The notes under the pieces were generated by a model that saw only the letters and a program-made list of their open reading frames with translations, was not told the origin of the DNA and did no database searches. A stretch of DNA of 64,000 bases from Candidatus Hadarchaeales archaeon (GTDB taxonomy: Archaea > Hadarchaeota > Hadarchaeia > Hadarchaeales > WYZ-LMO6): the NCBI GenBank assembly GCA_038851755.1, contig JAWCKR010000002.1:1-64000 (forward strand), given 5' to 3'. Of the stretch, positions 5,654 through 8,385 are shown piece by piece. Position numbers and translations under genes: made by a program. How positions within the stretch are numbered: the first letter of the stretch is position 1; the number at the start of each line of letters is the position of its first letter.

Positions 5654-6725
5654 AAAGGGAAGCAGGAAGCAGAGGGCCCTGGAGGAGCTCAGGAAACTGG
5701 GTAAGGGTGTGCTGCATGAGCTGAGGGAGGGGAAGCCGCCCAAGCTGAGGGTTCCCTCCAGGGGGACCTCCAACATAGTGTACGACGAGAAACACGGGTA
5801 CTACGTGTTGGGGCCCAGGTACGAGGTGCGCTCGGCCTCCAGCATGGCGCAGGTGAAGAAGTTCGCCCAGACCCTCTGCGTGGCGGACTTCTGCCGTGAG
5901 CTGGTGACGAGGGGAAAGTTCGCCACCCTGAGGGAGATGTACTACACCGCTGAGGGGTGGGAACCAGGGCCCTTCAAGGACCAGGACGAGTCCGACCTGC
6001 TGGTGGAGGATCTGGAGGCCATGCTGGGGGTGAAGAGGGAGGACCTGGCCCTCATGCCCGAGGAGGACGGGGCGGCGGTCTTCGGTGACCTGACGGTGAG
6101 GGAGGAGGGGGTGACGATCAACGCCCTGAAGGCGGGAAGGGGAGGGTACACCATTCCACCCACCATAGACGAGGTGGAGTTCGTGAAGTGCGGGGCCAAG
6201 AGGGTGATAGCCGTAGAGACCATGGGTATGTACCACCGCTTCGTGCAGGAGGAGGCCTGGAAGAAGTTCAATGCGCTGATCGTGGGGCTGAAGGGGCAGG
6301 CGGCCAGGGCCACCAGGAGATTTCTGAAGAGGGCACGGGAGGAGCTGGATTTGCCGGTTTACCTCTTCTGCGATGGGGATCCTTTTGGGTACCACATAGG
6401 CATGGTCATCATCTCCGGCAGTGCCAAGCTGGCATACATCAACCACGAGCTCGCGGTCCCAGACGCGAAGTACATAGGTGTGACGGCCAGCGACATCATC
6501 AACTACAAGTTGCCCACCGACAAGCTGCGCGAGCTGGACATCGCCCGTCTCAAGCAGCTGCAGAAGGACCCCAGGTACAACACGGAGTTCTGGCAGAGGG
6601 AGATCAAGAAGATGCTGGAGCTGGGGAAGAAGGCCGAGCAGCAGGCCTTCGCCAAGTACGGGCTGGAGTACGTGGTGAAGGAGTACCTCCCCGCCAAGCT
6701 GAAGGAAGTGGAGGGGTCCAGTTAA
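5637..6725 (+). CDS. top6A: DNA topoisomerase VI subunit A
   Basis: TLREMYY catalytic Tyr; TOPRIM motifs VET and DGDPFG; KKAEQQA. Confidence 0.97.
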
Positions 6726-6765
6726 GCCTTTATGGAGGGCTGCCCTAGAAAGGGTGCCGGGGAGT

Positions 6766-6919
6766 GCCGGGGTACTGCTCAGGCAGCCCGAAAGCTCAGC
6801 AGGTAGAGCGCTCGGCTGTTAAACCCGGTGTGGATGAAGAACGAGCCTCAAGAGAAAAGGACGACGCACCGGGTGCTGCGACCGAGCGGTCAGAGGTTCG
6901 AGTCCTCTCCCCGGCGCCA
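6766..6919 (+). tRNA. tRNA-Asn(GUU) with two introns: 6774-6792 (position 8/9, 19 nt) and 6822-6880 (position 37/38, 59 nt); CCA encoded
   Basis: The spliced sequence GCCGGGG-TA-GCTC-AGCAGGTA-GAGC-G-CTCGG-CT-GTT-AA-CCGAG-CGGTC-AGAGG-TTCGAGT-CCTCT-CCCCGGC-G-CCA folds into a standard cloverleaf. Both inserts are bounded by BHB motifs. Confidence 0.9.
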
Positions 6920-8385
6920 AAAAGTTCCACAAGAACCCACGGCGTGGGAGACGGGGGACCTTTATAGGAACAAGCCCACAAGATGGCCATCCGAGGCTTC
7001 AGATAACTCGACTTTTGATTTTACCACATTTTTCGCAGATGTACTTTTGTACGAATTTTCCTTTTCCAAGCCTGCTTGGTCCACCCACCTTTGTCCACCG
7101 GTGGATTCCCAATATGCACTTTAGAGTCCTTCTCGCTTTTCGTGGCACTTCCCTTTTGGGTTTGGAGTGAGGGGGTTCATCTCTCCCGGCAGGCTTCGAC
7201 CGTAGTTTCTCCAAGGCTCGCCAGTACCCGTTAGATTCTTCTTTCTTTTTACTTTGCAGGTAGTCGTAATACGGAGGGCAAGGGTGAGATTGCCCTTCTC
7301 TCCACTTTTCTCTTTCTAGCTTGCTCATAACGCCTGAGGAGTCAAAATCAGGAAGGTAGGGGGGCATAGGCTGAGCATGTTCCTCACAGAAACGTTTGTG
7401 GCAGTGGGGACACTCGACCTTTGCTGGTTTGTCGCATGAGTGGTAAGAGCATTCTCCCTCTCTAATCTTCCTTGGTTCAAGCCCTTTTGCCTTCCACATC
7501 CTCATAGGCAACTTGGCACACTCGTGCTTTTCAGGCAGCCGGTGCTCGGAGCAGTAGTACAAACCGCAGTAGTGGCAGTAGAAGGGCAGAACCTCTTCCC
7601 TGCCACAGTAGGCGCACTTATCCTTAGCCCCTGGTTCTATCCTCACCGTGCCTGTGAAATTGCTCCAAGCGAAGCTTTTCATGCTCAGGAAGGTTTGGAT
7701 TTTTTCATGCTCCACCCCGTGGTGAGGAGCCCACACATGCGCTACTTCGTGGCGGGCCACCTCTTCGATATCGTCTAGGTTGAGGGACATCAACCTTCCC
7801 TTCGAGATACAGATGATTCCTTCCTCTAGGTGTATATGGGCGATGTCGTCGCTGGAGGAGTTCGGGCATGGGGTTTCTGCAACTCTCACTATTAGTGGAG
7901 CAATCCCCATCATCTGGCAGTACCTCAGGACAGCGTTCGCGAGCGCGACCTTCTTTGCCTCGAAGAATGAATCATCCGTGCTCGAATTTTTGTTCATAAG
8001 CTCACGCTCTTGCTTCTTCTTTTCGCTCCTCGGGGGAGTCGCTCACTCCCACAATTTCAGGTTCCTTTTAATCTGGTTCTAATTTGATTTTTCATGTACT
8101 CATCTTGCGCGTGAGAGGTAAAGAGGATTATGTCGTACACACTATCTCAGAATATTTTGAATTTTTAAAGTTAGGGTTACTCTTGGAGGATGTGAAGTCC
8201 CTAAAGTGGATGGCATATTCAGGAAAAGAAACATGTTTTCGGGAATTTCCTAGTAATGCGCGTGTACTCTGACGACGCGAAGAGGCGAATGTTTTTTTTG
8301 CGGTCTAGGAAATCATTTTTGACTTTTTATTGATTGGTCAGAAGTCGAATCTTGTAATTTTCCTAGGTTCTCCCCCCTGGCGCCA
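6920..8385. mobile_element. Small low-GC island remnant at the tRNA-Asn 3' end
   Basis: Abrupt AT enrichment after the tRNA. The region ends with TCTCCCCCCTGGCGCCA (8369-8385), a degenerate copy of the tRNA 3' end TCTCCCCGGCGCCA, followed by a T-rich run. No integrase is present. Confidence 0.55.
6999..7997 (-). CDS. Hypothetical multi-domain protein: HExxH metallopeptidase-like domain, AN1-like zinc finger and further Cys/His fingers
   Basis: ARHEVAHVWAPHH; CAYC..PFYCHYCGLYYCSEHRLPEKHEC (AN1-like); CSYHSC..CPHCHKRFCEEH; C-terminal CILGIHRW..CEKCG. Confidence 0.75.
   Translation of the reverse strand: MNKNSSTDDSFFEAKKVALANAVLRYCQMMGIAPLIVRVAETPCPNSSSDDIAHIHLEEGIICISKGRLMSLNLDDIEEVARHEVAHVWAPHHGVEHEKIQTFLSMKSFAWSNFTGTVRIEPGAKDKCAYCGREEVLPFYCHYCGLYYCSEHRLPEKHECAKLPMRMWKAKGLEPRKIREGECSYHSCDKPAKVECPHCHKRFCEEHAQPMPPYLPDFDSSGVMSKLEREKWREGQSHPCPPYYDYLQSKKKEESNGYWRALEKLRSKPAGRDEPPHSKPKREVPRKARRTLKCILGIHRWTKVGGPSRLGKGKFVQKYICEKCGKIKSRVI

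Follow-up and report, generated by a model that had tools for sequence, protein, structure and literature searches.

How can a tRNA intron be removed when its splicing signal is built from the same nucleotides as the acceptor stem? The question is raised by the tRNA-Asn(GUU) gene of a hot-spring archaeon of the Hadarchaeota, whose MAG comprises 1.25 Mb with 62% G+C and is 93% complete. The gene lies between a topoisomerase VI-A gene and a zf-AN1 gene in the window, the whole stretch of 64,000 nucleotides that was analysed, and is the single tRNA-Asn gene of the genome, no second Asn gene having been found. Besides an intron at the canonical position 37/38 it carries one at position 8/9, and a second copy of its 5' acceptor strand stands directly upstream of the mature 5' end (Table 1). 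The initial annotation proposed that this upstream copy is a cis-acting switch that holds the 3' end of the tRNA and so frees nucleotides 1-6 for splicing.

Table 1. Features of the tRNA-Asn(GUU) gene and its leader, numbered from the first nucleotide of the window.
Feature	Position	Strand	Basis or remark
TATA-like box CTTTATGG, presumed tRNA-Asn promoter	6728-6735	+	Sequence reading; A/T peak in other tRNA genes
Putative leader decoy: GGU + GCCGGGG (6756-6762) + AG	6753-6764	+	Repeat analysis, orthologs, folding
Spacer AGU, from decoy core to mature 5' end	6763-6765	+	Variable among orthologs
Exon 1, tRNA nt 1-8, GCCGGGGU	6766-6773	+	U8 follows this copy alone
Intron 1, 19 nt, position 8/9	6774-6792	+	BHB with exon nt 1-8 and 9-11; predicted splicing
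Exon 2, tRNA nt 9-37: D arm, anticodon stem, anticodon GUU	6793-6821	+	Rfam alignment, ARAGORN
Intron 2, 59 nt, canonical position 37/38	6822-6880	+	Joined-exon call; Rfam insertion of ~60 nt
Exon 3, tRNA nt 38-76	6881-6919	+	3' acceptor strand 6909-6915, G73 6916, encoded CCA 6917-6919
Putative decoy target: T-stem nt 64-65, 3' acceptor strand, discriminator, C74-C75	6907-6918	+	Inverted repeat

The gene is poorly seen by tRNA finders. Nothing in the window is called as a tRNA by ARAGORN without its intron mode. The Rfam tRNA model covers 6793-6908 through its positions 9-63, at 31.5 bits, and places an insertion of about 60 nt within the anticodon loop. When the three exons are joined by script, ARAGORN calls the resulting 76 nt as tRNA-Asn(gtt) with a full cloverleaf and an encoded CCA. 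With the -i option ARAGORN instead starts at the upstream copy and gives a tRNA-Arg(gcg) at 6756-6919 with a 94-nt intron, which is a wrong model. The upstream copy is ruled out as the true exon 1, since U8 follows the downstream copy only; the upstream copy is followed by A or G, and three orthologs have it in truncated form. Of the 37/38 intron, the 5' part is conserved throughout the order, and a scan of 6740-6930 at E values up to 5 returned no Rfam match for it. The resemblance of GCUCAGGCAG to GCUCAGCAGG could suggest that the intron is a duplicate of the D arm; the likeness is confined to family f1 and is therefore probably due to chance. Nor is the repeat an att site duplicated by an integrated element, as it is formed by the 5' strand at a spacing of 10 nt and not by the 3' part of the tRNA; the last 25 nt of the tRNA occur once in the window with up to 3 mismatches allowed, with no att-type repeat.

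The intron at 8/9 is a member of the archaeal bulge-helix-bulge (BHB) class at an unusual position. Read in order, with a slash at each splice site, the motif consists of G1C2, C3GGG6, the bulge G7 U8/A, the hairpin CUGC-ucag-GCAG, CCCG, the bulge A A/A9 and G10C11, which bears out the reading that it needs tRNA nucleotides 1-6. Its central helix of 4 bp, between C3GGG6 and the intron CCCG, is flanked by two 3-nt bulges; the outer helix (H1) has 2 bp, G1-C11 and C2-G10, and the inner hairpin (H2) has 4 bp. As tRNA nucleotides 1-8 are all used in this structure, the BHB and the acceptor stem are mutually exclusive. The geometry (H2 ≥2 bp, central helix ≥3 bp, H1 2 bp) is kept in 23/24 orthologous introns, and H2 covaries, with 10 distinct stems among the 24 introns (CUGC/GCAG, CCGC/GCGG and CCACC/GGUGG among them); H1 is invariant and hence uninformative on covariation. 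For the BHB class at a non-canonical position we thus find the motif, the covariation of H2, a canonical tRNA after joining and an encoded endonuclease. The last is a single EndA gene (C4:40300-40554), an open frame of 184 aa matching PF01974 at 122.9 bits.

The same two 3-nt bulges and 4-bp helix, formed at the expense of the cloverleaf, are found in archaeal BHB introns at other non-canonical positions, as in the multiple-intron tRNAs of the Thermoproteales and others. The positions listed in PMC4090602 are 3/4, 20/21, 22/23, 25/26, 29/30, 30/31, 45/46, 53/54, 56/57, 59/60 and "etc."; 8/9 and 9/10 are not named in that list, which its closing "etc." leaves incomplete. An alpha4-type EndA with an L3 loop in Hadesarchaea has been associated with more tRNA gene disruption (Kaneta et al. 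2018, PMC5829648).

The tandem duplication described in the initial annotation is present: the 9-mer GTGCCGGGG forms a direct repeat at 6754-6762 and 6764-6772, with 10-nt spacing. As a word it is not rare, since it occurs 3 times in the window against 1.45 expected and 22 of 100 shuffles reach 3. What chance does not account for is that it stands in tandem at a tRNA gene's 5' end and that relatives conserve this arrangement. The complementarity of 12 nt between leader and 3' end was likewise recovered, as an inverted repeat that is 92% Watson-Crick, the twelfth pair being the wobble U6755-G6916. Two bases of the spacer, A6763 and G6764, take part, as they are able to pair with U65 and C64. 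Background values are given by the 37 other tRNA genes of the genome, in which leader/3'-end complementarity spans 2-8. In most of the genome's tRNA genes +1 is preceded by GG(U), able to pair with N73-C74-C75, and the same GGU stands before the leader copy. An ordinary pre-tRNA leader of this kind extends the native acceptor stem by about 3 bp, whereas the decoy would replace the native 5' strand entirely. A genome-wide scan for tandem acceptor copies, under a spacing rule that excluded copies 6 nt apart, found the Asn gene only.

For the copy to act in RNA it would have to be transcribed, and its position relative to the promoter suggests that it is. Across the 37 other tRNA genes A/T frequency is highest between -28 and -25 relative to the mature 5' end. 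Where a TTTAT box is present, the mature end follows its first T at a distance of 27-31 nt, the offset being 27 for the mature +1 of the Val and Cys genes. From the first T of TTTAT in the Asn gene (6729) it is 27 nt to G6756 and 37 nt to G6766. Similarly, from the TTAT core of the orthologs it is 26-33 nt to the decoy and 36-41 nt to the mature end; in genes without a decoy the latter distance is mostly 29-35 nt. The copy thus occupies the normal position of a tRNA 5' end relative to the TATA box, and the start most likely falls at 6754-6756. Initiator-like pyrimidine-purine steps are present at U6755-G6756 and also at C6758-G6759. If transcription starts at G6756, the RNA helix has 9 bp (6756-6764 with 6907-6915) instead of 12, and the switch is still predicted by folding; a start at G6759 would reduce the decoy to 6 nt, which would count against the proposal. 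Cleavage of the leader by RNase P would presumably fall between 6765 and 6766. The genome encodes the RNase P protein Rpp29; a search for RNase P RNA gave no hit in this assembly, which is 93% complete, and was successful in 25/25 relatives. In the roughly 12% examined of one raw RNA run, 0 reads fell on the locus, and read placement gave one contig each from X1 and X2. Two runs labelled "metatranscriptomic" are probably DNA.

Is the copy tied to the intron in relatives? Genomes reached through the neighbouring topoisomerase VI-A gene carry the labels Hadarchaeota or Hadesarchaea. We searched 65 genomes of the order Hadarchaeales, and a tRNA-Asn gene was found in 60 and parsed in all 60. The 8/9 intron is present in 24/60 genes, which belong to families f1, f2 and f4. 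All 24 have a leader copy of the form GC(C/U)GG..., 1-4 nt before the mature 5' end, so that an uninterrupted run of 8-12 pairs joins leader and 3' end. Orthologs with the 8/9 intron and no leader complementarity, which the initial annotation had named as evidence against its proposal, are thus absent among the 24. The 36 genes without the 8/9 intron (35 distinct loci) include 34 with 2-7 pairs; the leader copy occurs in 2/36, those of genomes L027 and L032 of family f5. These two indicate that the copy can exist without a role in splicing, and they count against the decoy. Among the genes without the 8/9 intron, 16 have an intron in the D loop and 0/16 have the leader copy, which argues that the copy is specific to an intron that consumes the acceptor strand.

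Phylogeny limits how far this association can be taken. States with and without the intron are mixed inside five genera, and the tree of the downstream gene part is poorly resolved, with 14 state changes on the best tree and 2 forced by supported branches. We therefore do not take the 24 genes as independent observations. As copy and intron are at most 30 nt apart, their co-occurrence alone could reflect co-inheritance, which also counts against the decoy.

A second, independent intron family provides a comparison with another acceptor. Partial Rfam hits in one relative led to a tRNA-Lys(CUU) gene with the acceptor GGGCCCG, an intron at 9/10 and GGGCCC directly before the mature end. In its BHB the central helix rests on tRNA nt 4-7 and the outer helix on nt 1-3. 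The same Lys(CUU) gene is present in the genome studied here (C7:20379-20574) and was missed by every finder. A 9/10 pattern whose first position is tRNA nt 2, so that the leader has no influence on the match, retrieved 17 genes from 15/65 genomes, for Lys(CUU) and CAU tRNAs, with 0 matches to the reversed-pattern control; the pattern would miss diverged introns. A leader copy of the GGGCCC(G) type, 0-1 nt upstream, is present in 17/17. Most of these copies are GGGCCC abutting +1, and some are the full GGGCCCG with a 0-1 nt spacer; three have the wobble-compatible change of C4 to U and one an altered first base. The promoter offset, judged by eye, is similar to that of the Asn genes. Six intron-less Lys(CUU) orthologs were seen, none with the leader copy; they are a sample and not a census, as the T arm and acceptor are common to many tRNAs and make the homology search noisy. 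Since the Asn and the Lys/CAU copies each match their own acceptor, the leader copy follows the acceptor of the intron-bearing tRNA. We propose a class of leader decoys defined by at least 8 nt of complementarity in genes whose BHB consumes the 5' acceptor strand; such complementarity was found in 24/24 Asn and 17/17 Lys/CAU genes.

The substitutions in the copy also bear on its role. Columns 1-5 of the decoy have a mean pairwise identity of 0.94, against 0.31-0.44 in the 20 nt upstream when the alignment is anchored on the copy, and the spacer varies in length (1-4 nt) and sequence among orthologs, in 11 architectures. The sole internal change in the Asn copy is C3 to U, in 4 genes, which retains a G·U wobble with G70; no internal G to A was seen in the copies. 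Each of the four GCUGG decoys has a GGC in front of it that pairs with G73-C74-C75, and the 3'-truncated decoys of L011, L012 and L133, shorter by one or two bases at that end, each follow a GG(C/U) that pairs in the same way. Where the upstream context is A/U-rich, the copy is complete and the next base, A or G, pairs with position 65. The base before the copy is a pyrimidine in 24/24 genes, and the first base of the copy is G. Judged from these alignments, the leader copy is under purifying selection, and the pattern of substitutions fits selection for a helix with the 3' strand, unlike selection for identity with exon 1. The acceptor stem is invariant, so the core helix offers no classical two-sided covariation, which counts against the decoy.

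Nearest-neighbour folding was used to obtain the minimum free energy (MFE) structure of the window gene, and ensemble probabilities were computed for 14 Asn orthologs at 37 °C and 70 °C. With the RNA starting at 6753 or 6756, the MFE structure of the window gene contains the decoy helix and the BHB hairpin; with a start at 6760 or 6766 it has the native acceptor stem and no BHB. The switch is thus predicted in the way the initial annotation proposed for the precursor with and without its leader. For the two upstream starts P(BHB) is 0.79, and the ensemble probability of the decoy helix in this gene is 0.99-1.0. Among the orthologs, absence of the leader gives P(BHB central helix) of 0.000-0.001 and P(native acceptor) of 0.88-1.0 in 14/14. 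When the leader is included, P(decoy helix) reaches 0.92 or more in 14/14 at 37 °C, and P(BHB) is at least 0.2 in 9/14 at 37 °C and 11/14 at 70 °C. The Lys(CUU) precursor of this genome behaves similarly, with P(BHB) of 0.95 with its leader and 0.004 without it.

Other predictions fit the decoy less well. P(BHB) stays below 0.1 despite the leader in 3/14 orthologs (L012, L024 and L028), and the decoy helix of L009, L012, L024 and L028 requires that GGY or the preceding bases be transcribed; both count against the decoy. Shuffled G-rich leaders give mean P(BHB) of 0-0.36, so that the shuffle control is not clean. When the 8/9 intron is removed the decoy helix is still favoured, the median P(native acceptor) over 18 genes being 0.001 at 37 °C and 0.007 at 70 °C. 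For the decoy to be released after splicing, tertiary structure, rapid strand exchange at high temperature or capture by RNase P would therefore be needed.

Taken together, comparative and thermodynamic grounds make it likely that the leader copy is a cis-acting RNA decoy, a mimic of the acceptor strand that enables the 8/9 BHB to form. The proposal of a switch that frees nucleotides 1-6 accordingly gains support from co-occurrence in orthologs, the Lys/CAU family, the signs of selection and the substitutions, and predicted folding. We infer that the decoy is transcribed, that splicing depends on it, that processing follows a set order and that RNase P removes it. As the initial annotation further suggested, the leader might also keep the ends from being matured or charged too early. 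Under this scenario transcription probably begins with the copy or slightly ahead of it, around 6754-6756. The BHB would arise by local folding of exon 1 with the 19-nt intron, drawing on tRNA nt 1-8 and 9-11. The 3' acceptor strand, made about 130 nt later, would pair with the free decoy, over 9-12 bp here; so bound, it could neither invade the BHB nor form the 7-bp G+C-rich acceptor stem. This would allow the splicing endonuclease to act at both 8/9 and 37/38 and the exons to be ligated, after which the true 5' strand would displace the decoy and RNase P would remove the leader of 10-13 nt. Removal of the leader by the splicing endonuclease itself, through a BHB at -1/+1, was rejected by inspection, as the second cut would fall inside the 3' acceptor strand.

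The copy might instead be a functionless relic, either an ancestral 5' strand left in place when exon 1 and the intron arrived or a slippage duplication, that is co-inherited with the intron. Its distance from the TATA box is that of an ordinary tRNA 5' end, as expected of an ancestral exon end; a single recombination event could move copy and intron, which lie within 30 nt of each other; two f5 genomes retain the copy without the intron; and the tree is unable to show many independent events. A relic is nevertheless unlikely, given that identity is 0.94 for the copy but 0.31-0.44 for its flank over three families with 11 spacer architectures, that changes are limited to the pairing-compatible C to U, and that truncated copies are compensated by GGY. 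The same arrangement moreover recurs in a separate intron family with another acceptor, in 17/17 genes, and the copy is absent from 34/36 intron-less genes. An origin as a relic would also be compatible with later recruitment as a decoy.

Two further explanations give the copy a function of another kind. It could act in RNA mainly on the order or quality of end processing, by masking the 3' end or the RNase P site or by shielding the 3' strand from exonucleases until splicing. The helix does cover G73 and C74-C75 where GGY precedes the copy, and the predicted decoy conformer puts the -1/+1 site at the foot of the BHB hairpin. Such a role leaves the restriction to acceptor-consuming introns unexplained, however, as 0/16 genes with only D-loop introns have the copy, and the helix falls short of C74-C75 in several genomes; as the main function it appears improbable. 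A role in end processing is compatible with the decoy and may be its secondary effect. The copy could also work at the level of DNA, as an initiator or an initially transcribed promoter element with no functional RNA structure. It overlaps the expected start site, and the pyrimidine that precedes its first G in every one of the 24 genes resembles the archaeal initiator step. Against this, other tRNA genes of the genome have quite different sequence at that position, the Lys/CAU copies differ and match their own acceptor, and the strand-specific C to U pattern with GGY compensation is a signature of RNA pairing, so that we regard a DNA-level role as very improbable.

The RNA decoy has partial counterparts in known systems. 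In the split and tri-split tRNAs of Nanoarchaeum equitans and Caldivirga maquilingensis, pairing of complementary leaders and trailers lets the endonuclease substrate form (PMC4090602, PMC4033280). These extensions join two transcripts and build the helix beside the BHB, and it is the splicing endonuclease that cuts them off. Unlike split tRNAs, the exons of the tRNA-Asn gene are contiguous in 6766-6919 behind one TATA-like box, and the leader copy, unlike the extensions, pairs with nt 64-75 of its own tRNA, outside the BHB, and is presumably removed by RNase P. The likeness to split-tRNA leaders noted in the initial annotation accordingly holds for the purpose, as an analogy; it does not extend to the means, as the leader here sequesters a competitor of the BHB and builds no BHB. 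In transcription attenuators, one strand has two exclusive partners and a third segment decides between them, as with the anti-terminator and anti-anti-terminator. The decoy resembles them by analogy in its competing helices; it would work without ligand or ribosome, its output would be a substrate for the splicing enzyme and, unlike an attenuator, it would presumably be reset by cleavage of the leader. We found no description in the literature of an acceptor-strand copy in the leader of contiguous tRNA genes, as far as main texts go, in which position strings such as 8/9 are not searchable; the Hadesarchaea tRNA tables of Kaneta et al. (2018) may list such introns.

A broader reading, to which we give even chances, is that decoys are an obligatory folding device that lets BHB introns settle by the acceptor stem of essential single-copy tRNAs: the mimic would park the 3' strand, splicing would precede 5' trimming, and RNase P would discard the mimic. 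If so, an intron at 8/9 or 9/10 without a decoy would be unspliceable, and the duplication must therefore precede or accompany intron gain. The decoy-only alleles of f5 would, on this obligatory reading, represent either a pre-adapted state or a remnant after intron loss.

If the decoy acts as proposed, it would be a new element of archaeal tRNA maturation, in which a leader serves as a transient stand-in for part of the tRNA and thereby lets a splice signal form despite a competing helix of greater stability. Introns at 8/9 and 9/10, positions at which BHB and acceptor stem are incompatible, would be accounted for; an obligatory order of processing would be predicted, and models of intron gain and loss would be constrained. 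As both ARAGORN and the Rfam tRNA model failed on these genes, tRNAs that appear to be missing from MAGs of the phylum may be artefacts, and a decoy-aware search may recover the "missing" tRNAs of Hadarchaeota MAGs.

The leader copy of the 5' acceptor strand can be followed beyond the tRNA-Asn gene of the window. The tRNA-Lys(CUU) gene of the same genome, which was picked up by neither ARAGORN nor the Rfam tRNA search of that genome, carries such a copy (GGGCCC) as well as an intron at position 9/10 and two more introns in the anticodon arm. Within family f5 of the Hadarchaeales, two tRNA-Asn genes (L027 in genome G009 and L032 in genome G012) have the leader copy without an 8/9 intron, and in a third f5 genome the tRNA-Asn gene (L031) has neither. 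The copy-only state of L027 and L032 is either one that followed loss of the intron or a pre-adapted one. Many Hadarchaeales tRNA-Asn genes (L025, L028, L033-L036, L039 and others) harbor extra introns. One of these sits in the D loop and another within the T loop after GGTTCGAG; in some genes the intron count is as high as four (L028).

Coordinates of the tRNA-Lys gene and of features at and around the tRNA-Asn gene
Feature	Contig	Position	Strand	Remark
tRNA-Lys(CUU) gene	C7	20379-20574	-	L146/L147; outside the window
Inverted repeat, left arm	window	6737-6744		between TATA box and decoy
Inverted repeat, right arm	window	6782-6789		3' half of intron 1
Intron 2 (37/38)	window	6822-6880	+	same intron in L002-L140
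Next ORF after tRNA-Asn	window	6999-7997	-	zf-AN1 the only domain recognised

Across the genome, many tRNA genes have GG or GGU immediately 5' of +1. These bases complement N73-C74-C75 at the encoded CCA end, and ordinary tRNA precursors may therefore have an acceptor stem lengthened by about 3 bp. No match to archaeal RNase P RNA was found in the whole assembly; the RNA was found in all 25 relatives searched, and the Rpp29 gene is present in the assembly. The missing RNA probably reflects an assembly gap.

A perfect 8-nt inverted repeat has one arm between the TATA box and the decoy and the other in the 3' half of intron 1. As the repeat is not seen in the closest ortholog (L002), and its left arm probably lies upstream of the transcript, it is likely due to chance.

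Over 6600-6919, contigs from two hot-spring runs show 2 differences from the window sequence; they part from it at 6919/6920, directly 3' of the tRNA-Asn CCA, and the DNA to the right therefore differs among strains. This may point to an insertion at the tRNA-Asn 3' end; a repeat of that end was looked for within the window and none was found.

In the canonical 37/38 intron, both the 5' segment around GGATGAAGAACGAGCCTCAA and a GACGAC motif are conserved throughout the order, and their conservation far exceeds that of the intron 1 loop. An Rfam search returned no match for this intron. The conserved parts may constitute a K-turn-like motif to which a protein binds, or else an element resembling a guide RNA.
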